In this document: one piece after another, positions 2,294 to 62,900 of the stretch
Numbering within the stretch: position 1 is the first letter of the stretch
How the letters are laid out: each line of letters opens with the position of its first letter
Source of the DNA: Candidatus Binataceae bacterium
Lineage (GTDB): Bacteria; Desulfobacterota; Binatia; Binatales; Binataceae
Direction of reading: 5' to 3'
Assembly (NCBI GenBank): GCA_041491005.1
Contig: JBGPUE010000010.1
Span: 178-64,177 of the forward strand
Length of the DNA: 64,000 nt
Notes under the pieces: generated by a model
Databases searched by the model: none
What the model saw: the letters and a program-made list of their open reading frames with translations, nothing else
Told to the model about the DNA's origin: nothing
Made by a program: the position numbers and the translations under genes

Positions 2294-2408
2294 CCTGCGC
2301 ACGGGAAGCACGGGGTGCTCCTGCGCAAAAGATTCGTGATGCCAGTGGGCTGCGCCGAGAATTTGGAGCCGGGTCCAGCGGCCTCGAGAGAGGAGTCGAC
2401 GCTTCAAG

Positions 2409-11500: not shown

Positions 11501-14500
11501 GGGTTGGCATAGATGACGTGATTGGCGATGCGCTGGAAGAGGTGCGCTTCGTCGGGACTGACGCCGAGATGGTGCAGCTCCACCTGAGCCTGCGTCCAGG
11601 CCAGAGTGACCGCGCGCTCGAAGGCTGTAAAGTCGTGGTGCTTGTCTGCCAAGTCAAGCGCTTCGACTCGGGAGGGTGCGATCAGGGTCCAGAATGCGAC
11701 GCGCGCCCGGCCACCCGGCGGAATTCTTAAACGGTGGCGAAGGCTGAAGATCGGATCGAGCACGGTGCCGACCGTGTTGGAAAGCGGCCGGCCGTCGATC
11801 ACGGATATCGGCGTTCGGATCCCTCGCGCACGCCCAAGGAACGCCGCCCGGTCGGTCTCGAATTGCAAGTCGCCCACCGTCTCGCCTTCTACTACGGCAA
11901 GGTGGGCTGCCCAGACCGGCGCCTCGCCGGGCGACCGCAGCCGCCGCGTTGCCATCACAGCGCCCACGTCGGCGACGAATTCCGTCTGCACGAACAGCTT
12001 GGAGAAGGCGGGGTGCGCGGCGTCTTCCGCTGGGGGCGCCAAGACGACCTCAGCATAGGAGGTCACCTCGATTTCCCGATACCGGTTTCCAAGGTTTGAG
12101 ATCGATACGCGGCGAACCTCGGCGTCGTCCTCGGGCGAAACCGCGATCTCGAGTGTTGTCGTGAGCGTCCCGTCGCGCCTCGTGATTTCGGCTCGATCCT
12201 CGGAGAACACCACCCCGTAACTATCCGGCTCGACGCCGGTCGGTTGATATCCCGCCGACCATACTTCGCCGGTACGCACATCGCGCAGAAAAACGTACGT
12301 TCCCCAGGAGTCGCAGGTAACGTCTTCTCGCCAACGCGTGACCGCGAGGTCCCGCCAACGGCTGTATCCGGAACCCGCTGCAGTGATCATCACTGCGTAT
12401 CTGCCGTTCGAGAGAAGGTGCGTGCGCGGAATCACGTCGTGTGGCGATCGGAATCGTCGCAGCATCGGCGCAACGATCTCGCGGATGTTGGGGGCCACCT
12501 TCACTTCCTCGGCACGCGGACGCGCAACCAAAACGTCGCGCGGAGTTCGTTCTTGCAGCAAGAGTTCCGTCGCCTGCATGACTGGCGCGGCGTGAAAACG
12601 GGCGCGCATCGTTCCGTTCCGGAGAGCGTCGTCAATCGCGACCAGAGTCATCCCCTGGTGATGCGCCATAAAAGCTCGAACGACCGCCACGTCTTCGCCC
12701 TCAGGGAGGCGCGTCGGCGTGTAGTCAAGAGCCTCATAGTAGCCATAGCGGCCGAGGCCACCGGCCGCAGCGAGACGTGTGAAGTTTCGCGCCGCAGCTT
12801 TGGCATCTACCATCGCGGCGAGGGCCGTTGCGTAAGGGGCGACGACGACGTTCTCGCTGAGTCCGCGCTTGAGCCCCAGTCCAGGGACGCCAAAATTTGA
12901 GTACTGATAGGTGAGCTCCAGATCTCGCGCGCTGTAAGCCGATTCCGAGACACCCCACGGCACGCCGAGCTCGGCGCCATACTTCATTTGCCGGCGGACG
13001 ACGAGGCGATTCGACTGCGCGAGCAGGCTCCCCTCCGGTGCGCGCATCACCAACGACGGCATCAGGTACTCGAACATCGAACCCGACCACGAGATCAGGG
13101 CCGAACCGCGATCTACCGGCGTCAGGTCGCGCCCGAGCCGGAACCAATGGCGCGCCGGCACGTCTCCCTTGGCGATCGCCACGAAGCTGGCCAAGCGTGC
13201 CTCAGAGGCGAGCAAGTCATAGCAGTTTGGATCGAGGCTGCCTTCCGCGACCCGGTACCCAATCGCAAGAAGTTGCCGCGCTGGGTCGAAGAGGAAGCCG
13301 AACTCCATGGCCTCGAACATTTTCCCCGCCATTTCGCCGAGCGCCGCGAGGCGACGTTCGAGCACGCGTGCGGCGTTCGCGGAACGTTCGAAGGCGTCAA
13401 TCAGAGCGTCGGCTCGCACCACCGCGGCAGATACTCCACGGGCGTGCGGGTCAAGTTCCGATCGGTAACGCGTCAGGCCTCTGATCGCCTCTTCGCAGTG
13501 ACCCGGCAGATCGGCAATGGTCGGAACGGATTCGAACAGATAGCCGAGCACCTCCTCCAGCGGAGCGTCTCCATCTACCGCTCTCTCAGCGGCGACGAAC
13601 GCGACGTCGCCCGCGAGCTTCGCCCATGGCATCAACTGTTCGACGTCGCGCTGATGACTCAGGATCGACGCCCGCACCGCTTCTACCCAGTTCAGCACTT
13701 GGGCGCTAGCGTCGTCTCCCCGTTCCTGGTTGAGCGTCCACGCAATGTCGACGGCCGTGTGGGCGTCAAGCGCGAGCCCCGCAAGGCGCCTTCCAACATC
13801 CGCCGGAGTCGTGGCAGGACTTCGCAGCGAAGCGGTGAGAGCGTCGAGTGCGTCCTCGATATGCTTTCGAGTTACCGTTTGAGTCCGCCGATCGTCAGCG
13901 AGCAAACGCAGACACTCGCGGGCGATTTCCAGCGCGTCATCGATCCCGGCGAGCCATCCCGGCCTCGGCACTGGACCGCCGATCATCTCCCGCAAAGCGT
14001 TCTCAAGGGCGATCAGGTGTCCCGCCAGATTCCCGCTATCCACAGACGAGACATATTTGGGGTCTAGCGGACGAAGCTTCCGCGTGTCGTACCAGTTGTA
14101 GAAGTGGCCGTGGAAGCGTTCGAGTCCGCTCATCGTCGTGAGAGTCGCGTCCAACCGCTCCAATGTTTCGAGCACACCCAGCCAGCCGAAATCGTGCGCG
14201 GCGGTCACGGACAGAAGATACAATCCGAGGTTGGTGGGCGACGTCCGATGAGCCAGCATTGGGATTGGTTCTTCCTGGAAGTTGTCAGGCGGAAGCATGT
14301 GATCCTCCGCGGTGACGAAGGTCTCGAAGAAGCTCCAGGTGCGGCGGGCGATGAGCTTGAGTGTCTGCGCATCTGTCTCGGAGGGCGGATTTGGGCCCAC
14401 CATGGGCGGTGGAAGGCTCGCCCATCGCGCGACCGCCGGCGATAGCATCCACAGGATCACGAATGGAGCCGCGATCGGCCATGACCCACCCCCCAAGCAT

Positions 14501-28145: not shown

Positions 28146-30722
28146 GTGCCCACCGAAATCGCAGAAGCCCAACCGGATCCCGTGTCGATCGAGGCGTTAT
28201 TCGAGCGCTGTCAAGTCACCGAGGCGGGCCTCTCGAGCGAAGAGGCTTCCCGCCGCCTCGTGCGATACGGCCCGAACGAACCAGTTCCGCTCCGCCGTGG
28301 TACCGCGATCACTCAGTTCATCCGGTTTTGCAGCAATCCGCTGGTCCTGATTCTCCTATCGGCGTGTGCTATTTCGGCCCTGGTCGGCCAGAGAATCGAT
28401 GCCGCGATCATTGCCGCGATGGTGGCAATCAGCATCGCGCTGAATTTCGTCCAGGCGTACCGGTCAGAACGCGCAGTGCTCCGCCTCCGTGAGCAGGTCG
28501 CACCGAGCGCAACCGCTCTGCGCAACGGACGGTACGTTGAGGTGCCCCGCCGCGCGATCGTGCCGGGAGATATCGTGCGGCTTGCCGCCGGCGATCTGGT
28601 ACCCGCTGACGCGCAGCTCATTCAGAGCCGCGATCTTCACCTTCAGCAGGCGGCGCTGACCGGAGAATCGATGCCGGTCGAAAAGTTCGCCATCGGGAGT
28701 GAACCCGTGGCAGACAAGTCGGCGAGCCTGATCTTTCTTGGCAGTTCGGTCGTTAGCGGCAGTGGCACAGCAGTAGTCATCGCCACGGGATCGGCCACGG
28801 CCTTCGGCGGCATCGCGGCCCGGCTGGCGGTCCGGCCGCCTGAGACCGAGTTCGATCGCGGCACGCGACAGTTCGGTTTCCTGATCATGAGGACGGTCTC
28901 TTTCCTCATCCTGTTCATCCTGCTGGTCAACCTGAGCGCGCATCGCAACGCACTCGAATCACTCCTTTTCGCAGTCGCTCTGGCAGTCGGGCTGACCCCT
29001 GAGTTCCTGCCGATGATCACGACGGTGACGCTCTCGATGGGCGCGGTGAGGATGGCGCGCAAGAAGGTGATCGTAAAGCACCTCATCGCGATCGAAGACT
29101 TCGGCAGTATCGATGTGCTGTGCAGCGACAAGACTGGCACGCTTACTACCGGCACGATGTCACTCGATCGTTCGCTCGACCCCTTCGGTCAGCCGTCGGA
29201 TCGTGCTCTATCGCTCGCCTATCTCAATAGCCGCTTCGAAACGGGCATCAAGAGTCCGCTTGATGCCGCGATATTGGCGAATCCGCGCGACGATGCAGAG
29301 CCTTACCAGAAGCTCGACGAAATCCCGTTTGACTTCGAGCGTCGCCGTCTTTCGATCCTGGCCGGAAGGAACGGCGCCCGTCTCCTTGTTACCAAGGGAG
29401 CGCCTGAGAGCGTCATCGGTGTCAGTGCATATTTCGAAGCTGGCGGAACTACGCATCCGCTGGAGGAAGAGCCACGACGCCGATGCGAAAAGACTTTCCG
29501 GGAGCTCAGCGCGCAGGGCTTTCGCGTGCTCGCGGTGGCGTGTCGCCAGATCGAGGGCCGTGATCGACTGGCGACGGACGATGAGCACGATCTCATCCTC
29601 ACCGGATTCCTAACCTTCTTCGATCCTCCAGTCGGAGATGCGTCAGAATCGCTTGCGGCGCTGCGACGGGACGGAGTGCAGGTAAAGATTCTGACCGGTG
29701 ACAATGAGCTGGTCACAAGGCATGTCTGCGAGCAGGTCGGGATAAAGGCTGAGCGGATCGTGCTCGGAGACGAGGTCCAGGGCATGAGCGACTCGGCATT
29801 GGGTCACGTCGCCGAACAGGTGGACGTCTTCGCGCGTGTGTCGCCGGCTCAGAAAAATCGGATCATTCAGGCTCTCAGGCAGCGCAGCCACGTGGTCGGC
29901 TTCCTGGGTGACGGCATCAATGACGCGCCCTCTCTGCACACCGCCGATGTCGGGATCTCAGTGGCCGGAGCTGTCGATGTAGCCAAGGATGCTGCCGATA
30001 TCATTTTGCTGGAGCACAATCTTCAGGTGCTCCACAGCGGCATCATCGAGGGCCGCAAGGCCTTCGGCAATGTTCTGAAGTATTTGCTGATGGGGACCAG
30101 TTCGAATTTCGGCAACATGTTCAGCATGGCGGCTGCGTCGGTCTTTTTACCATTCCTTCCGATGCTGCCGACCCAGATCCTGCTGAACAATTTCCTCTAT
30201 GATCTTGCCCAGGTGACGATTCCCACCGACAATGTCGACCCGCTGTACATCCGCAAGCCTCAACGCTGGGACATCACGATAATCCGCAACTTTATGCTGG
30301 TGATTGGTCCGATCAGTTCTATCTACGACTTCCTGACCTTCTACGTCCTGTTGAAGGTCTTTCACTCTTCCGAGCAGCTGTTTCACACCGGTTGGTTCGT
30401 CGAGTCGCTCGCGACGCAGACTCTGGTGCTTTTCGTGATCCGAACGGCGGGCGTCCCCTGGAGCAGTCTGCCCAGCCGGCCGCTGGCGGCGACGACCGTG
30501 TTGGTCGTCGTGATCGGCGTGTTGCTGCCGTTCTCTCCGCTCGCGCAGGCTTTGGGGTTTGTGCCCCTCCCCGGCCGCTACTTTGTCTTCCTGACAGTAG
30601 CGACGCTGACCTACCTGTGTCTGGTCGAAGTCGCGAAGCGCTGGCTCATGGGGCGGCTGCTGGCCAAGCCGGACCGGCGCGTCGGCCATCGTGTGCGCCG
30701 ACACTCTGGAGCCGTCGCATGA
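28146..30722 (+). CDS. mgtA: Magnesium-translocating P-type ATPase
   Basis: 858-aa ORF (GTG start) with TGES, DKTGTLT, GDGINDAPSL, LTPEFLPMI and SSNFGNMFSMA, characteristic of the MgtA/MgtB subgroup. Confidence 0.9.
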   Translation: MPTEIAEAQPDPVSIEALFERCQVTEAGLSSEEASRRLVRYGPNEPVPLRRGTAITQFIRFCSNPLVLILLSACAISALVGQRIDAAIIAAMVAISIALNFVQAYRSERAVLRLREQVAPSATALRNGRYVEVPRRAIVPGDIVRLAAGDLVPADAQLIQSRDLHLQQAALTGESMPVEKFAIGSEPVADKSASLIFLGSSVVSGSGTAVVIATGSATAFGGIAARLAVRPPETEFDRGTRQFGFLIMRTVSFLILFILLVNLSAHRNALESLLFAVALAVGLTPEFLPMITTVTLSMGAVRMARKKVIVKHLIAIEDFGSIDVLCSDKTGTLTTGTMSLDRSLDPFGQPSDRALSLAYLNSRFETGIKSPLDAAILANPRDDAEPYQKLDEIPFDFERRRLSILAGRNGARLLVTKGAPESVIGVSAYFEAGGTTHPLEEEPRRRCEKTFRELSAQGFRVLAVACRQIEGRDRLATDDEHDLILTGFLTFFDPPVGDASESLAALRRDGVQVKILTGDNELVTRHVCEQVGIKAERIVLGDEVQGMSDSALGHVAEQVDVFARVSPAQKNRIIQALRQRSHVVGFLGDGINDAPSLHTADVGISVAGAVDVAKDAADIILLEHNLQVLHSGIIEGRKAFGNVLKYLLMGTSSNFGNMFSMAAASVFLPFLPMLPTQILLNNFLYDLAQVTIPTDNVDPLYIRKPQRWDITIIRNFMLVIGPISSIYDFLTFYVLLKVFHSSEQLFHTGWFVESLATQTLVLFVIRTAGVPWSSLPSRPLAATTVLVVVIGVLLPFSPLAQALGFVPLPGRYFVFLTVATLTYLCLVEVAKRWLMGRLLAKPDRRVGHRVRRHSGAVA

Positions 30723-30782
30723 CGGTGTTACCGATCGGGCCGCTCGAGAAATGACGCAAAGCAGCGGCCAGGATCCGCGGCA

Positions 30783-31940
30783 TCATTGTAGACGAAACCG
30801 CGCGTACTGCTCCGCAGAGCTGTCGAAATCGATGCTCGCGTGCTGTGCGCCAACATTGATGTTTCGGAACGCAGCCTGCAACGCGCTGGGATCGTAGACC
30901 GCATGCGCGCCCGAGCCGGTAAACATCCTAACGACCGCGCGCCGGCATAGCTCCGCGGCGTATGCCGCGTGCCATTTGGCACGCACGCGTCCTTCGGTAC
31001 CGGCGGGATCCGCGCTGCCCATCAGCTGGTCGAATTCGGCGAACGTCTCTTGAAGGAGCAACTCGGCCGACTCGATTTCCGCAGCCGCTTCCGCCAATCG
31101 GACCTGAGTCGGTCCATGTTCGGCCTTCGAGGCGCCGGTCAGGATAACCTTGCGCTCGCGCGTCCGGTTGACGAACTGTTCGAGTGCGAATTTGGCGGAT
31201 CCCAGAACAGCGGTCGCGACCGAAACCGACAGGATGGCCTCCGCGGACAGCCGGTACACCGAGGTCGCGTGATTCTTACTGTGCGGGCTCTCACCGCGAA
31301 ACATGATTCGCGTATCGATCGCGCGATGAGCCGGGACCAGGATGCCGCGGGCTACGACGTCCTTGCTGCCGGTCCCCCGCAGACCCATCACATGCCAGGT
31401 GTCGTCGACCTCGATCTCGTGTCGCGGAACGACCACATGCACCAACGGTCCATGCGTCGACGAGTCCGCACAGCCAAGCATCACCCATTGCGCATTGTCC
31501 ACGCCACTGCAGAACTCCCATCGGCCGTCGACCCGGTAGCCGTCGCCTTCCTGCATCGCCGCGCCCTGCCAAGAGAGAGTTCCTGCGACCAACCCGTCAC
31601 GGCCCGCTCCGAATACTTCGTCCTGGGCGCCTTCCGGGAAAGATCCGAGACACCAGTGATGCGCCTCCATCACCATCAGCACCCACCCGCTCGATGGACA
31701 AGCCTGCGAGATGAGCGTGACAGCGTTCCCCAGTGTTCGGAGATTCATTTCGAAGCCGCCGGTGCGCGCGGGTTGTGAGATGCGAAACATACCGGCGGAG
31801 ATCATCGCCTCCATGCTTTCAGGGATGACACGCCGGGCCGCATCGCAAGCCTGGGCGTTGCGGGCAAGCGTTGGCGAGATAGCTGATACGCGCCGCATTA
31901 TTTCGCCGTGGTCGATCCGCATCTGCTCTTCACTCGGCAT
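30783..31940 (-). CDS. Acyl-CoA dehydrogenase-fold flavin-dependent monooxygenase-like protein
   Basis: 385-aa ORF. N-terminal ARNAQACDAARRVIPESMEAMISAGMFRISQPARTGGFE and the overall length resemble the ACAD type-2 / two-component oxygenase (HsaA/C2-like) group. Substrate unknown. Confidence 0.7.
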   Translation of the reverse strand: MPSEEQMRIDHGEIMRRVSAISPTLARNAQACDAARRVIPESMEAMISAGMFRISQPARTGGFEMNLRTLGNAVTLISQACPSSGWVLMVMEAHHWCLGSFPEGAQDEVFGAGRDGLVAGTLSWQGAAMQEGDGYRVDGRWEFCSGVDNAQWVMLGCADSSTHGPLVHVVVPRHEIEVDDTWHVMGLRGTGSKDVVARGILVPAHRAIDTRIMFRGESPHSKNHATSVYRLSAEAILSVSVATAVLGSAKFALEQFVNRTRERKVILTGASKAEHGPTQVRLAEAAAEIESAELLLQETFAEFDQLMGSADPAGTEGRVRAKWHAAYAAELCRRAVVRMFTGSGAHAVYDPSALQAAFRNINVGAQHASIDFDSSAEQYARFRLQ

Positions 31941-32115
31941 CTGCTTGGCAGTTCAACGGATTCTATCGTCGCCGGTTCGTTTGATCGAGCGGCGTTTCAG
32001 AATATCGATTCCGCGAAGTTCTGCGCAGCCGCGCAGCCCGATATTTCGAGCGAGAGTTACCCGATTCGCACACTTTAATGAGTCCTCTTAGAGGAAGGTC
32101 CCCGAAGGGCCGCTT

Positions 32116-33054
32116 CTACGCGTGGACGATTAGATCGGCGAGCGATCGATCGCTATGCAGGCGGTCGATTGCGTCCGCGAGCAGTGGTGCGAGGCTGACG
32201 CGCTGGACCGGGACAACCGCCGGGTCGGGCCCCCTCACGCTGTCGGTATAAAATAGTCGCTTTATGGGTAGTCCGCGCAGGCGCTCGATGGCCGGCCCGA
32301 CGAACAACCCATGGGTGCATACCACCGTGATCTGCGGATCGCATCCCGCCGCGAGCAGGGCGTTGATTGCCGCTTCGATCGTCCCCGCCGTCGTGATCAT
32401 GTCGTCGACGATCAGCGGCGCGAGTCCGCGCACGTCGCCCACCACGCCCCGCGCTTCGACCCGCTCTCCGCTCAGACGGCGCTTGTAGACCACCGCGGTC
32501 GGCGCGTGAAGAGTCCGGGCGTAGCGCTCAGCGAGCTTTACGCCGCCAAGGTCGGGGCTGACGATAACGGTTCGTGACCCGGCTACGGCGCTGATCGCGG
32601 GCACCAGAATCGGCAATGCAGCGAGATGCTCCAGCGGAACGGGAAAGAAACCCTCCAGCGACGTCATATGAAGGTCGACGGCGACGATCCGGCTGACGCC
32701 GACAGTCGCAATCAGATCCGCCGCGATTCGCGCACCGACCGGGCCGCGGCCCGTCGCCCGTCGATCCTGGCGCGCATACCCGAAGTACGGGATGATCGCC
32801 GTCATCCTTTCTGCGCCTGCCCGCCGGCAGGCATCGGCGAGGAAGATTAACTCGAGCAGATGTTCGTCGACGGGCGGCCCCGTAGGCTGCACAAGATAGA
32901 CATCCTGCCCACGCACACTCTGCTCGAGCTCGATGTTGAGCTCGCTGTCGGGAAACCGGCCCACGATGCGCCCCCCCAGCGGGACGCCGAGTCGGTCGGC
33001 GATTGACTCTGCAAGCGGGAGGTTGGCCGATCCGGCAAGGATAGTCAGGTTCAT
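32116..33054 (-). CDS. prs: Ribose-phosphate pyrophosphokinase
   Basis: MNLTILAGSANLPLAESIADRLGV N-terminus (Met at 33054; the listed ORF extends 16 codons further). Also IIPYFGYARQDR, DLH and the PRPP loop LIVDDMITTAGT. Confidence 0.9.
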   Translation of the reverse strand: MNLTILAGSANLPLAESIADRLGVPLGGRIVGRFPDSELNIELEQSVRGQDVYLVQPTGPPVDEHLLELIFLADACRRAGAERMTAIIPYFGYARQDRRATGRGPVGARIAADLIATVGVSRIVAVDLHMTSLEGFFPVPLEHLAALPILVPAISAVAGSRTVIVSPDLGGVKLAERYARTLHAPTAVVYKRRLSGERVEARGVVGDVRGLAPLIVDDMITTAGTIEAAINALLAAGCDPQITVVCTHGLFVGPAIERLRGLPIKRLFYTDSVRGPDPAVVPVQRVSLAPLLADAIDRLHSDRSLADLIVHA

Positions 33055-33191
33055 TGTGCTCTTCCTGCATTCCCGATTCTGCATCGAGAACGTGACGAGC
33101 AATGCTTGCCGCGCCGCGCGGTGACGCTGTCATCGAGCCTAGGCGAGCCAGTGCGGCTGGGCAACTGCACCTCCTCTATCTGAACCGCATG

Positions 33192-33980
33192 CTATTTCGC
33201 CAACGCTTGGCCTTCTTTGGCGGCGCCCGTGCAGCGGAGGGCACACTTGTCGGGGACCGGCCAAAGGCCCGGCGCGTTCGGCTCTATGCGCTCGCCCAGT
33301 GCAATCAGAAAAGGACCTGAAAGTAGATAGCCGGTAGCGAAGAGAAATGCTGCGAGCTGGGGTAAGGCCACTAGAACGCTCAAGGTGACGATCATCGCGA
33401 TCATCGTTGGAAGCGATAGGCGCCGAAGGTTGAGTGATTTGAAGCTCGGATATGGAACGCGTGAAACCATCAGGCCCCCCAAAATCAATGTCAATCCAGC
33501 GATCACTGCACATAGTGTGCGGGGCGCGGTGATCTCGAAGTATTGGTATGCGAGCACGACGCCCGCGACCATTGCGGCGGCAGCGGGAACGGGCAGACCG
33601 ACGAAGCGGCTCTTGTCGACACTACCTGCCTGGATATTGAAGCGCGCGAGGCGCAGCGCCGCACACACGACATAGAGGCCGCAAATCGTCGCGCCCCATA
33701 CACCCAGTGGCTCGAGCGCCCAGGTATAGACGAGCACTGCGGGCGCCACGCCGAAGGCCGTTACATCGGAAAGGCTGTCAAATTCCACTCCAATGGCGCT
33801 GGTGGTGCGCAGGGCGCGAGCTATCGACCCATCGAGCCAGTCGAACACAACCGCGATTTCGGTCATGAGCGCGGCGCGTCCGTAATGACCATGAACGGCG
33901 AAGACCAGCGAGAAGAAACCAATCAAAAGTCCAAGCGAAGTAGTCGCTTCAGGTAGCAGCGCGCTCATAAGCGAGGTCAT
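33192..33980 (-). CDS. pssA: CDP-diacylglycerol--serine O-phosphatidyltransferase (CDP-alcohol phosphatidyltransferase family)
   Basis: DWLDGSIARALRTTSAIGVEFDSLSDVTAFGVAPA matches DG(x)2AR...G(x)3D(x)3D. Multiple TM segments. Start ambiguous (33980 chosen; the listed ORF starts at 34043). Confidence 0.85.
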   Translation of the reverse strand: MTSLMSALLPEATTSLGLLIGFFSLVFAVHGHYGRAALMTEIAVVFDWLDGSIARALRTTSAIGVEFDSLSDVTAFGVAPAVLVYTWALEPLGVWGATICGLYVVCAALRLARFNIQAGSVDKSRFVGLPVPAAAAMVAGVVLAYQYFEITAPRTLCAVIAGLTLILGGLMVSRVPYPSFKSLNLRRLSLPTMIAMIVTLSVLVALPQLAAFLFATGYLLSGPFLIALGERIEPNAPGLWPVPDKCALRCTGAAKEGQALAK

Positions 33981-34093
33981 CTCGCTGCGCGCCTCCTGTC
34001 TGGGAGATGCAGGTCGCACGGCGTCCCTTTTACAACCGTCCACAGCCTGATTTCTCCGGTATCTCGAACGATTCCGGTGCGAGAAATCGCGTT

Positions 34094-34109
34094 TGCAAGG
34101 TTATCGCCG
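34094..34109 (-). promoter_or_regulatory. Candidate sigma-54 promoter ahead of pssA (weakest of the set)
   Basis: The minus strand reads CGGCGATAACCTTGCA, with GG and TTGCA at exact -24/-12 spacing. It lies immediately downstream of the hpf stop codon (2 nt away) and is 52-115 nt from the alternative pssA starts. Confidence 0.3.
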
Positions 34110-34110
34110 G

Positions 34111-34644
34111 CTAGTCAGCCAACGTGACGGTGCTGGCCTGCGGACCCTTCTCGCCCTCTTCTTCGGCGAAGCGGACATGACTGCCGACTTCGAGACGCTC
34201 GAAGCCGGGCGCCAGCACGCTGTTGCGATGGAAGTAGATCTCGCGACCGTCGGGCGTCTCGAGGAATCCGTAGCCGTCATCGCTGAAGAGCCTCGCGACG
34301 CGCGCCAAGGCCGGCCCTTCGTGGCTCTTAACCGCGCCGCGCACCTCGCGCACGTGGTCTTCAAGCCGCCGCCGGGCCGCGTCGAAGGCCTCGCGGATCG
34401 CCGTCATGAGTTCCTCGTCGGACTGATGGCTAATCGCGAGTTCGCCCCTCGGGACCTTCAGGTCGATTCGAATCTTGAACGGACCGCCCCGGCGGTGATG
34501 GCGCACCGGAGCTTCGACCGCGATGCGGCATCCGCTGATTTGGGGATCAAACTGTTCGAGCTTCGCAGCCCTGCGCCGAAGCTCAGCCTCTTCTGCCTCG
34601 GTCAACTGAAAGTTACGCGCTGTGATTTGAACCGGATATTCCAC
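34111..34644 (-). CDS. hpf: Ribosome hibernation factor (HPF/RaiA, S30AE fold) fused to a C-terminal cold-shock domain
   Basis: 177-aa ORF with a GTG start and GAGAGGA SD. The N-terminal ~105 aa are HPF/RaiA-like (VQITARNFQLTEAEEAELRRRAAKLEQF...FKIRIDLKVPRGELAI...EELMTAIREAFDAARRRLED). The C-terminal ~65 aa are CSD-like (ARLFSDDGYGFLETPDGREIYFHRNSVLAPGFERLEVGSHVRFAEEEGEKGPQASTV). Confidence 0.85.
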   Translation of the reverse strand: MEYPVQITARNFQLTEAEEAELRRRAAKLEQFDPQISGCRIAVEAPVRHHRRGGPFKIRIDLKVPRGELAISHQSDEELMTAIREAFDAARRRLEDHVREVRGAVKSHEGPALARVARLFSDDGYGFLETPDGREIYFHRNSVLAPGFERLEVGSHVRFAEEEGEKGPQASTVTLAD

Positions 34645-34670
34645 GTCGTTCCTCTCTTAGCCGAGCTTTC

Positions 34671-34686
34671 CGCAATCCCTGTGCCA
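34671..34686 (-). promoter_or_regulatory. Sigma-54 (-24/-12) promoter of hpf-CSD
   Basis: The minus strand reads TGGCACAGGGATTGCG, a full match to TGGCAC-N5-TTGCW. The -12 GC is 28 nt upstream of the GTG start. Confidence 0.6.
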
Positions 34687-34826
34687 CCAGTCACGAACGC
34701 CAGCTTGGCCGAATCGGCGGCCGTTGTGTCACCAAGAGAGACACGCGTGACCCCGTTGGGCGCAAACTTTGAAGTGACGGGCGTGGCGGTTGGCGGCCGA
34801 CCCTTCTGACGCACGATCGGCGTTCA

Positions 34827-34842
34827 CGGCGCACGTCTTGCA
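34827..34842 (+). promoter_or_regulatory. Candidate sigma-54 promoter of archease-rtcB
   Basis: CGGCGCACGTCTTGCA: GGC and TTGCA at exact consensus spacing, 37 nt upstream of the archease ATG. It is divergent from the hpf promoter. Confidence 0.45.
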
Positions 34843-34877
34843 AGTTGGCCTGATCGGGCTAGGCTCGTCACAGATCG

Positions 34878-35300
34878 ATGCCCAGCGACGAATTCTACCG
34901 TGAGATCGAGCACACCGGGGATGCGGGTGTCGAGCTCGTCGCCACGTCGCGCGCTGAACTGTTCCGCAGGGCCGCGATCGCGATCGCGCGGCTGATGGTG
35001 GCGCCCGAGGGCGTCCGCCCGATCGAGCGGCGCGAGGTGCGGGTCAGTGCAGTGAGCGATGCCGACCTGATGCACGACCTGCTCGCGGCGTTGCTCAACT
35101 TGTTCCTGGTTGAAGGGTTCATTTGGTGCGATGCGGTGGTGAATGAAGACGGCGATTCAGTGCGCGCGGACGTAGTCGGCGAACGCTATGATCCCGCGCG
35201 CCACGAGCTGCGCACCGAGATCAAAGCCGTGACCTACCATCAGCTGTCGGTCGAGCGCGTGGGAGATCGCTGGCAGGCGCAGGTGATTTTCGACATCTAG
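34878..35300 (+). CDS. Archease (RtcB activator)
   Basis: 140-aa ORF with the N-terminal YREIEHTGDAGVELVA (HT.D motif) and C-terminal IKAVTYHQLSVE typical of archease. It lies directly upstream of rtcB. Confidence 0.85.
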   Translation: MPSDEFYREIEHTGDAGVELVATSRAELFRRAAIAIARLMVAPEGVRPIERREVRVSAVSDADLMHDLLAALLNLFLVEGFIWCDAVVNEDGDSVRADVVGERYDPARHELRTEIKAVTYHQLSVERVGDRWQAQVIFDI

Positions 35301-35359
35301 GCTGCCCCGCGCGCAATCGTGCGAAGCGCGGCCGTCGAACGCGTCGGCGGTATCCGGTT

Positions 35360-36796
35360 ATGGAACTCCAGAAGATCAGCGACTTTCTATGGGAAATCCC
35401 GCGCCATGGAGCGATGCGCGTGCCGGGGCGGATTTACGCCAGCCAGCAGATGATCGACGAACTCCGCGATGATCCAGCGCTGACGCAGGTCGCGAACGTC
35501 GCGTGCCTGCCCGGCATCGTCGGCTACTCGCTCGCGATGCCCGATATCCATTGGGGCTACGGATTTCCGATTGGCGGTGTTGCCGCGACCGATGCCGACG
35601 AAGGAGTGATTTCACCCGGCGGTGTCGGCTACGACATCAACTGCGGCGTGCGGCTGATCAAGACCAACCTCGAGTACACGGCCATCGCGGACAAAGTTGA
35701 TCGTCTGGCTGACGCGCTCTTCGATGCTGTGCCCGCGGGCGTTGGCTCCAGCGGCGCGATTCCCGGCCTCGCGACCGACGAGCTCAAACGTCTGCTCGGC
35801 TCCGGCGCCGTATGGGCGATGAACCACGGCTACGCTTCGATGGATGATCTCGAGCACACCGAAGAGAGCGGCCGGCTCGAGATGGCTGACCCATCGGCCG
35901 TCAGCGAGATGGCGCTCAGGCGCGGGCGCATCCAGCTCGGCACACTCGGCTCGGGCAATCACTTCCTCGAATGCGACCGTGTCGATCAGATCTACGACCC
36001 CGACATCGCGCGCGCCTTCGGCCTCGAGCTCGGCCAAGTGACTGTGATTATCCATTCAGGCTCGCGCGGACTGGGCCATCAGATCTGCGACGACCATTTG
36101 CGCGTGATCGGCAAGGCGATGAGCGGTTACGGGATCACTCTACCCGACCGCCAACTCGCCTCGGTGCCGATCCGCTCGCCGGAGGGTCGTGCCTACCTGG
36201 GCGCGATGGCGGCGGCGGCCAACTTCGCCTGGTGCAACCGGCAGATCATGATGCATCTGGCCGAGCGCGCCTTCATGGAGACGCTGGGCACAGGGCCGCG
36301 CGAAGTCGGCTTCTCGTTGCTGTACGACGTTTGCCATAACATCGCCAAGTTCGAGCGCCATGTGGTGGGCGGTGTCGAACGGCGCGTATGTGTGCATCGC
36401 AAAGGTGCAACGCGCGCCTTCGGCCCAGGCCATCCGGCGCTGCCCATCGCCTTTCGAATGATCGGGCAGCCAGTGCTGATCCCCGGTGACATGGGCCGCT
36501 ATTCGTATGTGCTGGTGGGACGCGAACGTGCGATGGCCGAGACCTTCGGTTCGACCTGTCACGGCGCTGGGCGCTTAATGAGCCGCGCCGAAGCCAAGCG
36601 CCGGGCGCGCGGCCGCGACCTACTGGCGGAATTGCGGGAGGCCGGCGTGACGATCAGGTACCAAGGCCGTTCGACAGTCGCGGAGGAAATGCCGGCCGCT
36701 TACAAGGATGTCGCAGACGTGGTCGGAGTGATGGAAGCGGCTGGCGTCAGCAAGCGAGTGGCGCGGCTCAAACCCTTCGCCGTAATAAAGGGTTGA
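35360..36796 (+). CDS. rtcB: RNA 3'-phosphate ligase RtcB
   Basis: 478-aa ORF with MPDIHWGYGFPIGGVAA, GVGYDINCGVR, GSGNHFLE, HSGSRGLGHQ, HRKGATRA and CHGAGR. Confidence 0.95.
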   Translation: MELQKISDFLWEIPRHGAMRVPGRIYASQQMIDELRDDPALTQVANVACLPGIVGYSLAMPDIHWGYGFPIGGVAATDADEGVISPGGVGYDINCGVRLIKTNLEYTAIADKVDRLADALFDAVPAGVGSSGAIPGLATDELKRLLGSGAVWAMNHGYASMDDLEHTEESGRLEMADPSAVSEMALRRGRIQLGTLGSGNHFLECDRVDQIYDPDIARAFGLELGQVTVIIHSGSRGLGHQICDDHLRVIGKAMSGYGITLPDRQLASVPIRSPEGRAYLGAMAAAANFAWCNRQIMMHLAERAFMETLGTGPREVGFSLLYDVCHNIAKFERHVVGGVERRVCVHRKGATRAFGPGHPALPIAFRMIGQPVLIPGDMGRYSYVLVGRERAMAETFGSTCHGAGRLMSRAEAKRRARGRDLLAELREAGVTIRYQGRSTVAEEMPAAYKDVADVVGVMEAAGVSKRVARLKPFAVIKG

Positions 36797-37132
36797 TGCC
36801 GCGTCCATCGGCCTAGCCACCGCTATTGACGTTATTGAGTCCTACGAGTGTGTCAGGCGATGCGCCGAGCGCTCTGGATGCCGTAAGCGTCAGCCGCGTC
36901 GCCGCAGTGCGCGATTACGCGACGCGAATCTGCCTGATTGGCGCTGCTGCATCTAACGGAGTCATTGGTTCCCGGCTGACCCTCCTTACGAAAGCACCCA
37001 TCTCCGACATACTCTGTCTTTCGACATGGCGTTCCAATTCATAAGCAGCGATGGTGCGATTCGCTGGACTTAGACGCGAGCATCGGCGCATCCAGTTGAT
37101 TGTGCGGGGCTGAATACCTCCGCCTGTTTGTG

Positions 37133-37148
37133 CGGCAGGAGAATTGCT
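37133..37148 (+). promoter_or_regulatory. Candidate sigma-54 promoter of usp
   Basis: CGGCAGGAGAATTGCT: GGCA and TTGCT at exact -24/-12 spacing, 26 nt upstream of the ATG at 37173. Confidence 0.5.
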
Positions 37149-37172
37149 CAGGGCTCATGCAATAAGTCGGCG

Positions 37173-37583
37173 ATGAGACTGCTGTTCCGAAAGATTCTTT
37201 GTCCTATCGATTTCGACCGCATCGCGATCGGAGCAATCCAACTCGCGCGCGAGCTAGCCGGGCGAGACGGCGGCCTCGTCTACCTCTTGTGCGTCGTCCC
37301 CAAAGACCGGACTCGTCTGAAAGCCGACTTGGAGCAGGTCGCACACAACAGCTTGCGCGGGATTGGCCGCAAATGGTTCGAGGGAAAAGCGCCGTACGAG
37401 ATCCTCGTTCGCGCCGGCCGGCCAGCGCGGGCGGTGCTTGATGCGGCGGAGGAACTCGGCGTTGACGTCGTGGTGATGGCAACTCATGGGCGAACAGGAA
37501 CCAGGCGTGTGCGTCTGGGCAGCGTTACCGAGGAAGTGGTTCGGCAGTCGACACGACCGGTGGTGACAATCAGGCCAACGTAG
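37173..37583 (+). CDS. Universal stress protein (UspA family)
   Basis: MRLLFRKILCPIDFD... and the C-terminal VVVMATHGRTGTRRVRLGSVTEEVVRQSTRPVVTIRP (G-2x-G-9x-GS/T ATP-binding type). The listed ORF start at 37128 is probably an extension. Confidence 0.85.
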   Translation: MRLLFRKILCPIDFDRIAIGAIQLARELAGRDGGLVYLLCVVPKDRTRLKADLEQVAHNSLRGIGRKWFEGKAPYEILVRAGRPARAVLDAAEELGVDVVVMATHGRTGTRRVRLGSVTEEVVRQSTRPVVTIRPT

Positions 37584-37637
37584 GGCTTGGCCTGCTTCGT
37601 CGATCTTAACGCGCCAAATCGAGGAGGACATCGCACA

Positions 37638-37838
37638 ATGAGCAGATACAATTGGGACGAAATCAACCGCACGGTTGAGGACTTAACCAAGCGTTACAAC
37701 ATCGCAGCGGTCGACAGCGTGACCGTCGGTGGAAATAGCGATGGAGTCGAGTTGACGCTCACCTCGCTGACCCCCGAGCAAGCCGAGCAGATCTTCAGGC
37801 TCATCGGGCTCAAGCAAGTCGAGCTCACAGTGCTCTGA
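37638..37838 (+). CDS. Small hypothetical protein (66 aa)
   Basis: ATG at 37638 preceded by GAGGAGG at a good distance. The sequence MSRYNWDEINRTVEDLTKRYNIAAVDSVTVGGNSDGVELTLTSLTPEQAEQIFRLIGLKQVELTVL has no family I recognise. The coding call rests on the RBS and its position within the operon. Confidence 0.5.
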   Translation: MSRYNWDEINRTVEDLTKRYNIAAVDSVTVGGNSDGVELTLTSLTPEQAEQIFRLIGLKQVELTVL

Positions 37839-38109
37839 TCGCGCATCAAGCCGCCTCACTCTCTCGTTGACGGTCCGCAATGGTAGTCGTCGCGAAGAGC
37901 ACCCTTGTTCCGACGATACGGCGGAGTCGCGTAGATGCGGCGAGGCTGCTTCGTCCCCCGCTTCGATGCCGGGCCTCACGATGTTTGTGTGGAGCGATCC
38001 GGAGCGCGGCTGGCGCCTTTGGAAACACATCAGAGGGGGCTGGCTTACCGTGGTTCACTGTGGCCTACCCGGAAGCTGAGAATTCAGTGCAACGAATCCA
38101 GGAGTTCGA

Positions 38110-38125
38110 TGGCAAGTTTCTTGCG
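38110..38125 (+). promoter_or_regulatory. Candidate sigma-54 promoter of hsp20
   Basis: TGGCAAGTTTCTTGCG: TGGCA and TTGC at exact -24/-12 spacing, 47 nt upstream of the hsp20 ATG, which has a strong AAGGAGGAG SD. Confidence 0.55.
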
Positions 38126-38170
38126 ACACAGCATCATCGAACACCAACAATTTGAAAGGAGGAGAGATCA

Positions 38171-38623
38171 ATGGGAGCATTAACCCCATGGAGGCCGTTT
38201 CGCGAAATGGAGCGATGGGCGCGCAATCTGGAGGGCCGCTTTCCGCGAGTCTTTGAGGACTGGCCGTTTCGGGCCGAGGAAGCGGAGTTTCTGCCGCCGA
38301 TTGAGAGCTTCGTCCAGAACGGCAATATCGTCGTGCGCGCCGACGTTCCCGGACTGGAGGCCAAGGACATCGAGGTCAGCGTTTTGGGCAACGTGCTGAC
38401 GATCAAAGGCGAGCGCAGGGATCAGAAGGAAGTCAAGGCCGAGGATTACATCCGGCGCGAGATCTCCTACGGCTCCTTCGAGCGCAGGCTTACGCTGCCC
38501 GATGGCGCCGATGCCGACAAGGTCAAGGCGCAGTTCAAAAACGGGACGGTCGAGATCACGATGCCGATGGCCAAGGGCGCCAGCCCCAAGAAAGTGCTGG
38601 TGGAGAGCGCAGAGAAGAAGTAG
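38171..38623 (+). CDS. Hsp20 / alpha-crystallin family small heat-shock protein
   Basis: 150-aa ORF with an alpha-crystallin domain: PPIESFVQNGNIVVRADVPGLEAKDIEVSVLGNVLTIKGER...ISYGSFERRLTLP...KAQFKNGTVEITMP. Confidence 0.9.
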   Translation: MGALTPWRPFREMERWARNLEGRFPRVFEDWPFRAEEAEFLPPIESFVQNGNIVVRADVPGLEAKDIEVSVLGNVLTIKGERRDQKEVKAEDYIRREISYGSFERRLTLPDGADADKVKAQFKNGTVEITMPMAKGASPKKVLVESAEKK

Positions 38624-38734
38624 TCAATCGGTCACAGGGGCAGGCGGCTACCACGCATCGCAGTTGTGCCTGCCTCCCCCGCGGCACTGGATTGTCGCAG
38701 CTCACGCGGCCTGACGCGAAAGGAGGAGATTCAG

Positions 38735-39337
38735 ATGCCAGCCGGGTCGACGATCTTGAATACCAATCACGAGCGGGTCGAGAAGCTCCGAACAGTGCTA
38801 GTCAGCCAACGCGACCATGCGTGGGCAAGGGTGCGGGAGTTCCGTCACGACCAGGAAGGCGACGCGATTCCGCCGCCGGCGGATGAGATGGACCTGGCGC
38901 GTTCGACCGCCGACCTCGAGACTCATGCGAGCCTGATCGAACAAGCGGAAGACCGGCTCGCACAAATCGACGACGCGCTGGCGCGGCTCAACGAAGGCCG
39001 CTATGGGATCTGCGCAAAATGCGTCGAGGAGATCGCGGTCGAGCGTCTCAACACGCTGCCCTTCGTGCTGTACTGCGTCGATTGCCAGCGCGAACTCAAC
39101 CGTGCGCGCCGCCGCGGCGAGGGCAGCCTGTCGCGCAGTTTCGGCCGCCGCTGGGAGACGCCGCTGGAGATGGATGAATCGCTGGAGAGGACCGACGCGA
39201 TGAGCCAGCCCGAGGAAGAAACCACCATACGCGAAGGCCGGCCTTTCGGCCGCGAAGAGGGCACTCCAGACCACGGCCGGATGCCGCGTACGGGCAGGGG
39301 CTTGGTTCGGCGCGGACGGCCCAAGCGCAGTGCGTAG
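38735..39337 (+). CDS. DksA/TraR-family C4 zinc-finger protein with a long basic C-terminal extension
   Basis: ATG at 38735 after AAGGAGGA. It has a coiled-coil region with DEMDLA (DxxDxA tip motif) and the zinc finger CAKC-x17-CVDC. About 80 further residues are rich in Arg/Glu/Gly. Confidence 0.8.
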   Translation: MPAGSTILNTNHERVEKLRTVLVSQRDHAWARVREFRHDQEGDAIPPPADEMDLARSTADLETHASLIEQAEDRLAQIDDALARLNEGRYGICAKCVEEIAVERLNTLPFVLYCVDCQRELNRARRRGEGSLSRSFGRRWETPLEMDESLERTDAMSQPEEETTIREGRPFGREEGTPDHGRMPRTGRGLVRRGRPKRSA

Positions 39338-39355
39338 TCGCGCAGGGGATACCGG

Positions 39356-39802
39356 ATGAGCAAACTATTCAACCGGATTCTCTGCCCGATCGCGTTCGAG
39401 CACGAGTCGTTGAGCGCCCTCGATCTGGCCATAGCGATCGCGCAGCAGAACGACGCGACCCTCGTGCTGCTCAACGTCGCGCCGCTCCCAATCGGAGCCG
39501 GCGAATTCGCGCCGACGCTCGATCCGTATCCCGCGATCGAGCAAGTGGCGCGCGAACGGCTTGAGCGACTGGCCCACGATCGGCTTGAAGGCAAGGTCGC
39601 ATACAACACCCATGTCGTCGCGGGCGATCCGGCGACGCAGATCCTCCGTGCGATCGAGGCCTTCGCCGCCGATCTGGTCGTGATGGGGACGCATGGGCGC
39701 AAGGGCGTCAAACATCTGCTGTTGGGGAGCGTCGCGGAGAAGGTCGTGCGCGAGTCACCGCGGCCTGTGCTGACCGTGCGTCCCGCAGAGGAAGCGCGCT
39801 GA
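39356..39802 (+). CDS. Universal stress protein (UspA family)
   Basis: 148-aa ORF with NRILCPIAFEHES... and LVVMGTHGRKGVKHLLLGSVAEKVVRESPRPVLTVRP. Confidence 0.85.
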   Translation: MSKLFNRILCPIAFEHESLSALDLAIAIAQQNDATLVLLNVAPLPIGAGEFAPTLDPYPAIEQVARERLERLAHDRLEGKVAYNTHVVAGDPATQILRAIEAFAADLVVMGTHGRKGVKHLLLGSVAEKVVRESPRPVLTVRPAEEAR

Positions 39803-39828
39803 CGGCTTGATACGCGGGAGGCAGACAC

Positions 39829-40479
39829 TTGCAGATAACTACCGACTCAGTTGAACTTGAGGGCGACCTCGAGATGCCGGCGGGCGTTGCGCGGGGAATC
39901 GTGATCTTCGCGCATGGGAGCGGAAGCAGCAGGCTCAGCCCGCGTAACATGTACGTGGCTGCCCGTTTGCGTGCGGCCGGAGTCGCCACATTGCTTTTCG
40001 ACCTGCTCACCGAGGCCGAGGCGCTGGATCGCCAAAACGTCTTCGATATGGAGCTGCTCGCCCGCCGCTTGCGGGCCGCTACCGCATCGGTGCGCCGCCA
40101 TCGGCTCGCCGGGATACTACCGGTCGGCTATTTCGGCGCCAGTACCGGCGCTGCTGCTGCACTAATCGCCGCAACGCGCGATCCAGCGATCACCGCGATC
40201 GTGTCGCGCGGTGGGCGACCCGACCTCGCGGGAGATGCGCTCGCTCAGGTGAAGGCGCCGACGCTGCTCATCGTCGGCGGCGAAGACCGCGAAGTGCTGG
40301 AGTTGAATCGGCGCGCGCTCAGGCGCCTGAGCTGCGAGAAAGAACTCCGGGTAGTTCCGGGTGCGACGCATCTGTTCGAGGAGCCGGGAACGCTCGACGA
40401 GGTAGTGAAGCTCGCCAGCGATTGGTTCGTGCGCCATCTGCACGCTCACCCGGGCGAAAAGGAGACCCATGTTCACTAA
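39829..40479 (+). CDS. Dienelactone-hydrolase-like alpha/beta hydrolase
   Basis: 216-aa ORF (TTG start as listed) with GIVIFAHGSGSSRLSPRNMYVAARLRAAGVATLLFDLLT and the nucleophile elbow FGASTGAAAAL. Its 3' end overlaps the next gene by 11 nt. Confidence 0.8.
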   Translation: MQITTDSVELEGDLEMPAGVARGIVIFAHGSGSSRLSPRNMYVAARLRAAGVATLLFDLLTEAEALDRQNVFDMELLARRLRAATASVRRHRLAGILPVGYFGASTGAAAALIAATRDPAITAIVSRGGRPDLAGDALAQVKAPTLLIVGGEDREVLELNRRALRRLSCEKELRVVPGATHLFEEPGTLDEVVKLASDWFVRHLHAHPGEKETHVH

Positions 40480-41173
40480 TCGCCAGGATGCGGGACGCCG
40501 GCTCGCCAAGGCTCTCGCCCGCTACAAGGATGACCATCCCGTCGTGCTGGCACTGCCGCGCGGTGGAGTTCCGGTCGGTTTCGAGGTAGCCAAGGCGCTG
40601 AGCGCGCCGCTGGACATTATCGTCGTGCGCAAGCTGGGCGCTCCCGGACAACACGAGCTGGGGATCGGCGCGGTCGTCGACGGCGACCATCCGCAGACCG
40701 TGCTCAATGAGGAACTGCTGCGAAGGATCGATGTGCCCAAGAGTTACCTCGAAGCAGAGATCCTGCGCGAGCTTGAGGAGATCCACCGCCGCCAGCAGAC
40801 CTACCGCAAGGGGCATCCACCGGTCGATCCAGCCGGGCGGATTGTAATCGTCGTCGATGATGGGATCGCGACTGGCGCCTCGATACGCGCGGCGTTGCGC
40901 GGTCTGCGAAAGCTCGCTCCCCGCCGTCTGGTGCTCGCCGTGCCGGTCGCACCCGCCGAGACGATCGAGTCGCTCAGAGCCGAGGTCGACGAGGTGGTTT
41001 GTCTTGCGACCCCGCCCGATTTCTTCGCTATCGGACAGTACTATGACGATTTCAGGCAGACTTCTGACGCGCAGGTAGTCGAGCTGCTCGACAAGGCGCG
41101 CAATCGTGTGCTGGCGCCCTCGCCGCCAGCGGCACGCTCTCCATCAGAAGAGAGCAAAGCGCCCTCCTGCTAG
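40469..41173 (+). CDS. Phosphoribosyltransferase-domain protein
   Basis: 234-aa ORF with MFTNRQDAGRRLAKAL...VVLALPRGGVPVG and the PRPP-binding loop IVIVVDDGIATGAS. Confidence 0.85.
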   Translation: MFTNRQDAGRRLAKALARYKDDHPVVLALPRGGVPVGFEVAKALSAPLDIIVVRKLGAPGQHELGIGAVVDGDHPQTVLNEELLRRIDVPKSYLEAEILRELEEIHRRQQTYRKGHPPVDPAGRIVIVVDDGIATGASIRAALRGLRKLAPRRLVLAVPVAPAETIESLRAEVDEVVCLATPPDFFAIGQYYDDFRQTSDAQVVELLDKARNRVLAPSPPAARSPSEESKAPSC

Positions 41174-60163: not shown

Positions 60164-60238
60164 TTGCGCGGCTGCCCTGTCGATCCGGTCTCGGCAGGGA
60201 TCCCTTCCTATTATCCATCTAAGGTCAGCTCGATAGTA

Positions 60239-60844
60239 TCATCTCTCGTTGCGAACTTGCCGAGTGCGGTCCGGGGACAATGCGTCGAGGGCGAGGTTCA
60301 GGCGCAAAACATTCACCCCGGGCTCGCCGAAGATTTCGGCCCATCGCCGACTTGTATTCACCCTGACTAGCCGGCGTACCGCGTCTTCGGCCAAGCCTCT
60401 GGTCTTTGCGACGCGGGCGACCTGGATATCCGCGGCGGCCGGGCTGATCTCGGGATCCAATCCACTACCCGACGCAGTGACCAGATCGATCGGTACCTGT
60501 GCCGGCCGCACGCCCTCGGTTTCGACCACCGCCTTGAGCCGCGTCTGGACGGCGTCGATCAGCGTCTTGCTGGTTGGGCCGAGGTTCGAGCCGCCCGAAC
60601 TCAATCCATCGTAGCCCTTCGCCCCAGCCGTTGAGGGCCGCCCGTGAAAGTTGCGCGCACTTGAGAAGTTCTGTCCGATAAGTGACGACCCGACCAGCTT
60701 GCCGTTCACATATACGAGGCTGCCATTGGCCTGTAGCGGGAAGAGCAACTGGGCCACCGCCCAGACTGCCAGCGGGTAGATGACGCCCGTTAGCAACGTC
60801 ATCACCACGGTAAGCCGGGTTGCGATCCACAGTGAACGCATCAT
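60239..60844 (-). CDS. kdpC: Potassium-transporting ATPase subunit C
   Basis: 201-aa ORF with an N-terminal TM, FHGRPS and SGGSNLGPTS...SGSGLDPEISPAAA, typical of KdpC. Confidence 0.9.
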   Translation of the reverse strand: MMRSLWIATRLTVVMTLLTGVIYPLAVWAVAQLLFPLQANGSLVYVNGKLVGSSLIGQNFSSARNFHGRPSTAGAKGYDGLSSGGSNLGPTSKTLIDAVQTRLKAVVETEGVRPAQVPIDLVTASGSGLDPEISPAAADIQVARVAKTRGLAEDAVRRLVRVNTSRRWAEIFGEPGVNVLRLNLALDALSPDRTRQVRNER

Positions 60845-60851
60845 CTGTACC

Positions 60852-62894: not shown

Positions 62895-62900
62895 GACTTC

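Follow-up and report, generated by a model that had tools for sequence, protein, structure and literature searches.

A likely orthologue of the ribosome hibernation factor HPFcold with a predicted sigma-54 promoter in Candidatus Binataceae

The gene and its product

The window analysed here, a 64,000-nucleotide stretch of DNA from a Candidatus Binataceae bacterium (GenBank assembly GCA_041491005.1, contig JBGPUE010000010.1, positions 178 to 64,177 of the forward strand), has a GC content of 61.5% and carries a gene for a two-domain protein of the ribosome hibernation type, referred to below as HPFcold. The gene and the features that belong to it are as follows.

34111..34644, minus strand: HPFcold coding sequence, 177 aa, GTG start, coordinates including the stop codon
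34348..34632, minus strand: HPF/S30AE ('sigma-54 modulation protein') domain, aa 5-99, PF02482
34315..34332, minus strand: flexible inter-domain linker, aa 105-110, the sole segment of the structural model with pLDDT<50
34120..34311, minus strand: C-terminal cold-shock domain (CSD), aa 112-175, from PF00313, Foldseek and residue mapping
34649..34658, minus strand: strong Shine-Dalgarno region AAGAGAGGAA, 5 nt 5' of the GTG, read from the sequence
34671..34686, minus strand: predicted sigma-54 (-24/-12) promoter TGGCACAGGGATTGCG, with a predicted transcription start near 34660 and a leader of ~16 nt

In the list of open reading frames the coding sequence is a single uninterrupted ORF, and its GC3 of 0.76 is on a par with that of the credible genes of the window. 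The assignment of an N-terminal HPF/S30AE domain and a C-terminal CSD, made originally from the letters alone, is borne out by both Pfam models and by the predicted folds. PF02482 (Ribosomal_S30AE) matches aa 5-99 (E=6e-12, 46.6 bits, Pfam cut-off 23.7), with 95 residues over 85 model positions, and the domain has an extended beta2-beta3 loop (aa ~45-55) which is typical of the HPFcold family and in which H49 and H50 are invariant. PF00313 matches aa 120-175 (E=2.9e-11, 43.5 bits, cut-off 27), and the CSD carries the RNP1-like motif GYGFLE and the RNP2-like motif IYFH.

An AlphaFold2 model built from 40 homologues (mean pLDDT 86.7) has a beta-alpha-beta-beta-beta-alpha domain, a disordered linker and a five-stranded barrel. 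When the two halves were compared separately with Foldseek, the HPF half matched E. coli HPF (6h4n_x, TM 0.90, rmsd 1.3 A) and the CSD half matched a Bacillus Csp (1hza, TM 0.88, rmsd 1.6 A), with Csp structures overall at TM 0.85-0.88. Docking of the CSD on the HPF domain, which had been put forward at the outset as a point to check, finds no backing in this model, which has a pTM of 0.55, the disordered linker and no confident packing between the domains.

The protein lacks the defining features of long HPF, of the short HPF/YfiA equivalogs and of stand-alone Csp proteins. No Pfam match to the C-terminal dimerisation domain of long HPF (Ribosom_S30AE_C, PF16321) was found even at E<=1, in agreement with the original prediction that this domain is missing. 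The equivalog model of short HPF/YfiA (TIGR00741) scores 24 bits, under its cut-off of 40.9, which marks the HPF domain as divergent, and the best score against the stand-alone Csp equivalogs (CspA/CspE) is 35.3 bits for a cut-off of 120. The NCBIfam Csp and short HPF/YfiA models thus match at the level of the domain only. In size, too, the 177-aa two-domain protein departs from short HPF/YfiA, which has one domain in ~95-115 aa, and from stand-alone Csp proteins, which are a single CSD of ~70 aa.

A genuine fusion

A sequencing or assembly error that merges a short hpf with a neighbouring csp could in principle give rise to such an ORF, and an error at the junction had been named as a possible undoing of the prediction. 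Gene calls in four independent metagenome assemblies give the identical 177-aa protein, flanked by the same genes for archease, the CDP-alcohol transferase and Prs. All of the 120 best homologues contain both Pfam domains, fall in the same length class and begin at the same start residue; the colinear architecture is common to thousands of homologues, and the protein aligns without gaps with one that has been observed intact by cryo-EM. A frameshift or fusion artefact is ruled out by the ungapped match to a PDB entry, the two-domain homologues and the four assemblies, and we give it practically no credence.

Relationship to HPFcold of Coxiella burnetii

A sequence search of the PDB returned chain 9 of entries 9T0Z and 9TZE, deposited as 'Ribosome hibernation promoting factor' (E=3.2e-40). 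The alignment to 9t0z_9 is ungapped and full-length, with residues 1-174 set against 6-179 at 42% identity. This chain is CBU_0020 of Coxiella burnetii, which has been named HPFcold (Stuart et al., Nat Commun 2026;17:7049, PMC13392368). It consists of PF02482 and PF00313 separated by a six-residue linker, to which the disordered aa 105-110 of our model correspond. Cryo-EM placed its N-terminal domain in the decoding centre of the 30S subunit and its CSD on the anti-Shine-Dalgarno (anti-SD) 3' end of 16S rRNA, which wraps around the CSD, with bS21 and uS7 as a clamp; the ribosome in question is a stored 70S monomer with the 3' end of its 16S rRNA shielded from RNases (PMC13392368).

Contacts with the rRNA have been described residue by residue in CBU_0020: Y142 is the stacking partner of U1534 and F132 that of C1535, which also pairs with R123, and R177 forms a bridge between phosphates (PMC13392368 supplement). 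Three of these four contact residues are kept in the window protein, as R118, F127 and Y137 (R123, F132 and Y142 of CBU_0020). Neither F127 nor Y137 varies among 20 aligned family members, all of which have K or R at position 118. The fourth, R177, is replaced by T172, and since threonine is the majority residue here (16 of the 20) R177 is not a feature of the family as a whole. Conservation in the HPFcold family has been reported to cluster on the residues that contact the anti-SD, with the CSD as the better conserved half (PMC13392368), a remark with which our values of 47% identity in the CSD and 41% over the first 100 residues agree.

The window protein thus resembles CBU_0020 in domain order, in length (177 vs 183 aa), in its short linker and extended beta2-beta3 loop and in the retained R/F/Y contacts. 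It differs in coming from another, uncultured, high-GC lineage, in the change of R177 to T172, and in the setting of its gene, for which a sigma-54 promoter is predicted and beside which an archease-RtcB pair is transcribed divergently. As judged from its sequence, it shows every testable defining feature of HPFcold.

How the protein may act on the ribosome

By homology with the Coxiella protein, the HPF domain would occupy the decoding centre of the 30S subunit, in the region of the A and P sites, and block both tRNA and mRNA. The short flexible linker would let the CSD reach the mRNA exit side, where its aromatic RNP-type surface (Y125/F127 and Y137/F138/H139) would stack on the single-stranded anti-SD tail of 16S rRNA. 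Capture of the anti-SD would block initiation and also prevent decay by 3'-exonucleolytic RNases, so that the ribosome would be kept as a protected 70S monomer rather than be dimerised to 100S. The 64-kb window itself contains no 16S rRNA gene.

The CSD could instead act on mRNA or other cellular RNA, either by tethering specific transcripts to the silenced 30S subunit or as an RNA chaperone. Its RNP1/RNP2 aromatics are of a generic kind, able to bind any single-stranded pyrimidine-rich RNA, it scores against the CspA/CspE models, and the rRNA contact made by R177, one of the four, is not conserved. Set against this are the only solved homologue, whose CSD sits on the anti-SD tail, the clustering of family conservation on those contacts, and the three stacking and pairing contacts retained in the window protein. 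Moreover, the HPF domain fills the path of the mRNA, and so no bound mRNA would be left to tether. We regard an action on mRNA as very unlikely. Of the two forms of tethering originally envisaged, that to rRNA comes close to the placement of the CBU_0020 CSD on the anti-SD tail, whereas that to mRNA is unsupported.

It is also conceivable that 100S dimers are formed by a new route, for example through contacts between two 30S subunits that are mediated by the CSD, given that the C-terminal domain of long HPF goes to roughly the same platform and exit region. The dimerisation domain is not detected in the window protein, however, and in the Coxiella structure, a 70S monomer, the CSD is clamped by bS21 and uS7. 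Dimerisation by such a route seems highly improbable, and storage as 70S monomers is the reading that we prefer.

Comparison with other hibernation and cold-shock proteins

Long HPF, or RMF together with short HPF, produces 100S dimers. With the long HPFs of S. aureus, B. subtilis and T. thermophilus the window protein shares the N-terminal fold, and presumably the binding site, as well as a C-terminal extension directed toward the 30S platform and mRNA exit region. The C-terminal domain is a CSD instead of PF16321, however, and for this reason storage as 70S rather than 100S particles is to be expected.

The functional outcome would be similar to that of the E. coli pair of RMF and short HPF/YfiA (RaiA), which between them block the decoding site and cover the anti-SD region, the latter reportedly the part played by RMF in E. 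coli. HPFcold would do both jobs in one polypeptide, and would do so without an RMF-type protein, the C-terminal tail of YfiA or dimerisation; by this analogy it would work like RMF plus HPF in a single chain, yet it lies outside those families. Stand-alone CspA, CspB and CspE have in common with the window CSD the OB-fold, the aromatic RNP1/RNP2 motifs and ~33% identity (TM 0.85-0.88). Unlike them, the window CSD forms one covalent chain with a ribosome-binding domain and is not a free RNA chaperone.

Chimeras of HPF have recently been catalogued as HPF-Csp, HPF-SigE and HPF-CBS, and described as widespread, horizontally mobile additions to canonical HPF which are frequently adjacent to Balon and coexist with canonical HPF (Chan et al., bioRxiv 10.1101/2025.11.04.686544). 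The window gene is like them in encoding an HPF domain that is fused to a stress-protein domain in place of a dimerisation domain, and in lying at a variable locus, apart from the canonical rpoN-hpf operon. It differs in its surroundings: neither a Balon-like (eRF1-type) gene nor a second HPF was found among the Pfam-annotated ORFs of the 64-kb window. These ORFs do not include rpoN either.

Size and distribution of the family

The combination of an HPF domain with a CSD is already known from two papers of 2025-2026, which between them give it a name, a solved structure and a catalogue of cases. It is also abundant. In a database clustered at 90% identity 5592 clusters match at E<=1e-5, and among 1.84 billion 50%-identity representatives there are 207 matches at E<=1e-30, which are essentially full-length, and 1828 at E<=1e-10. 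When a single genome of each species was scanned, at least 593 relatives were confirmed, in Binatia, Methylomirabilota, Nitrospirota, Acidobacteriota, Gloeobacterales and other cyanobacteria, Planctomycetota, Myxococcota, Chloroflexota and Gammaproteobacteria. Among the matches listed, the closest relatives come from Binatia, Methylomirabilota and 'Deltaproteobacteria' metagenome-assembled genomes, at 59-66% identity for HPFcold and 72-76% for RtcB. Names given at the source (NCBI) include 'HPF/RaiA family ribosome-associated protein' and 'cold shock CspA family protein/ribosome-associated translation inhibitor RaiA'.

Because the family is large and has been described, the window gene is an ordinary member of it, and the view of it as an unusual gene cannot be upheld. 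A separate observation concerns seven homologues (P0126, P0127, P0140, P0161, P0193, P0234 and P0252) which, at 320-640 aa, are longer. In them the HPFcold unit either lies at one end or is matched twice, and they may have come about by tandem duplication, by additional fusion or by the merging of gene calls.

A predicted sigma-54 promoter

The sequence upstream of the gene contains an exact match to the sigma-54 consensus TGGCAC-N5-TTGC (TGGCACAGGGATTGC, 34672..34686, minus strand), which ends 27 nt from the start codon of HPFcold. It is the only exact match in the 64 kb, for an expectation of 0.18, and so the description of this promoter as perfect holds. Exact matches also turned up in 18 of 100 shuffled sequences; the window site alone is therefore suggestive and not significant, and for this reason the relatives were examined. 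The four other assemblies are of no help here, because at ~99% identity a comparison of their intergenic regions says nothing about selection on the promoter.

Sites were sought in 80 related genome loci as GG-N10-GC agreeing with the consensus at 9 or more of 11 positions, up to 300 bp upstream of HPFcold. Such a site was present in 22 of the 80, against ~2.8 expected from the background rate, measured as 0.035 per 300 bp, and a site with at least 10 of 11 positions in 10 of the 80, against ~0.8 expected. About three quarters of these relatives have no sigma-54-like site. Sigma-54 control of HPFcold thus looks real but lineage-restricted, to judge from the motif counts.

No sigma-70-like site was seen in the 233-bp intergenic region, and no intrinsic terminator was found around the HPFcold gene. 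Upstream activator repeats or palindromes common to the candidate sigma-54 promoters amounted to weak repeats that are probably due to chance. Within ~20 kb of HPFcold the window has no gene for a sigma-54 enhancer-binding protein (EBP). The sole EBP gene lies beside the kdp genes, and its presence in the window makes it very likely that the organism uses sigma-54.

The kdp cluster (55831..63851, minus strand) combines KdpA, KdpB and KdpC with an unusual set of regulators. A KdpD sensor-USP fragment (58946..60163) and a HAMP-PAS histidine kinase (57162..59042) are encoded separately, and the place of the usual KdpE is taken by an NtrC-type sigma-54 activator (55831..57486). Elsewhere in the window, an ORF of 2954 aa (8578..17442, minus strand) combines GH94 supersandwich and catalytic domains with a glucoamylase-like domain, as cyclic beta-1,2-glucan synthases do, and is flanked by large multi-domain glycosyltransferase/methyltransferase genes (197..6629).

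Genomic neighbourhood

On one side HPFcold is flanked by genes for a P-type cation ATPase, an acyl-CoA dehydrogenase, Prs and a CDP-alcohol phosphatidyltransferase. On the other side lies a divergent archease-RtcB pair, beyond which follow a USP, a small ORF, Hsp20, a DksA/TraR-like protein, a second USP, a dienelactone-hydrolase-type protein and then a phosphoribosyltransferase. The features of this side that bear on regulation are listed here.

34827..34842, plus strand: sigma-54-like site CGGCGCACGTCTTGCA, a prediction, 36 nt upstream of the archease start
34878..35300, plus strand: archease, divergent from HPFcold (PF01951, E=9e-37)
35360..36796, plus strand: RNA ligase RtcB, divergent from HPFcold (PF01139, E=4e-174)
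37133-37148, plus strand: sigma-54-like site with at least 9/11 positions, upstream of the first USP
38110-38125, plus strand: sigma-54-like site with at least 9/11 positions, upstream of Hsp20

The archease site agrees with the consensus at 9 of 11 positions, including the GG and the GC. With the site of HPFcold this makes four correctly oriented sites within 3.5 kb, each 25-50 nt upstream of its gene or gene pair (archease-rtcB, USP, Hsp20 and HPFcold), and half of the ten sigma-54-like sites with at least 9/11 positions in the whole 64-kb window fall between 34.6 and 38.2 kb. This arrangement of predicted sites suggests a small sigma-54 stress regulon whose activator gene is not nearby.

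The small ORF between USP and Hsp20 (37587..37838, plus strand, 83 aa) is gene-like in its codon GC, with a GC3 of 0.71; it has no Pfam match, and no tblastn match to it was obtained in the 80 related loci. The wider region (~28146..41173) holds a gene set of a dormancy or hypoxia type, including the P-type cation ATPase, the two USPs, Hsp20, the DksA/TraR-like protein, the dienelactone-hydrolase-type protein with the phosphoribosyltransferase, and an HPF paralogue, which we take to be reminiscent of the mycobacterial DosR regulon.

To count the neighbours of HPFcold in the 80 related loci, ORFs at most 6 kb from the gene were clustered in an unbiased manner.

USP: 19/80 loci
Hsp20: 13-15/80 loci
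sigma-54 EBP: 9/80 loci
DksA-like: 8/80 loci
NMD3-like zinc-ribbon protein: 7/80 loci
RtcB: 6-7/80 loci
Prs: 6-8/80 loci
FtsH: 6/80 loci
P-type ATPase: 6/80 loci
YbaK-type tRNA-editing domain: 6/80 loci

USP and Hsp20 are thus the commonest neighbours in other phyla too. The zinc-ribbon protein, of ~186 aa, adjoins HPFcold in seven loci that are mostly from Nitrospirota (L024, L025, L031, L034, L054, L066 and L072) and is not present in the window. It has a weak match to the NMD3 family (for example L054:5416-5976, PF04981, 28.8 bits) and could be another ribosome-associated factor.

These data bear on a further reading, in which the protein is a cold- or temperature-specific factor, that is a translation regulator induced by cold shock. 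The case for it comes down to the name of the domain and the similarity to Csp proteins. It is countered by a predicted leader of ~16 nt, which leaves no room for a thermosensor of the cspA type, and no Rfam RNA element or thermosensor was matched anywhere in the 64-kb window. The promoter is predicted to be of the sigma-54 type, and the neighbours here and in relatives (Hsp20, USP, DksA-like protein and RtcB) point to general stress and dormancy. Coxiella HPFcold, moreover, was found on ribosomes of cells at normal temperature, and its authors link it with long-term dormancy (PMC13392368). The temperature-linked control that had been put forward at the outset is for these reasons very unlikely, and an HPFcold that serves in general stress or dormancy remains the preferred reading.

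A possible link with RNA repair

RtcB genes lie no more than 6 kb from HPFcold in 7/80 loci, which belong to four groups at about the level of phyla, namely Binatia, Manganitrophaceae, Gloeobacterales and Dehalococcoidia (loci L006, L007, L018, L024, L053, L060 and L071), some of these loci being from one clade. One of them (L018) has a sigma-54-like site upstream of each of RtcB, HPFcold and Hsp20. Another, from Binatia (L053), has a 10/11 sigma-54-like site followed by RtcB and then, directly downstream on the same strand, HPFcold.

In E. coli RtcB re-ligates the 3' fragment of 16S rRNA that is removed by MazF (PMC5416887). RtcB therefore repairs the same 16S 3' end that HPFcold would shield, which makes a pairing of protection and repair an attractive hypothesis. 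Divergent sigma-54 promoters in the 233-bp intergenic region might co-induce HPFcold and archease-RtcB as a module for the preservation and repair of ribosomes; on evidence that is at the level of motifs, and partly phylogenetically non-independent, we put this forward as a tentative proposal that is more doubtful than probable. Neither the regulation of HPFcold, nor a sigma-54 promoter, nor a link with RtcB is mentioned by Stuart et al., supplement included, or by Chan et al., and what is possibly new here is confined to the regulatory and genomic context.

Significance

The function proposed for the window protein is transferred from a single structure at 42% identity. On this basis, together with the homology, folds, contact residues and promoter motif described above, we consider it probable, at roughly 0.8, that the gene is an orthologue of HPFcold which silences and preserves 70S monomers, and which is most likely transcribed by sigma-54 within a cluster of stress and dormancy genes.

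For annotation, the value of the finding is that the protein should be called HPFcold, and neither long HPF nor a cold-shock protein. The impact is small, in that one more environmental member is added to a class of hibernation factors described in 2025-2026. HPFcold is often found among genes of a dormancy type, such as those for USP, Hsp20, DksA-like proteins, RtcB and sigma-54 activators, and the presence of sigma-54-type promoters in a sizeable minority of lineages suggests how hibernation by HPFcold gets switched on. If true, this context would link the protection of the 3' end of 16S rRNA with its repair.
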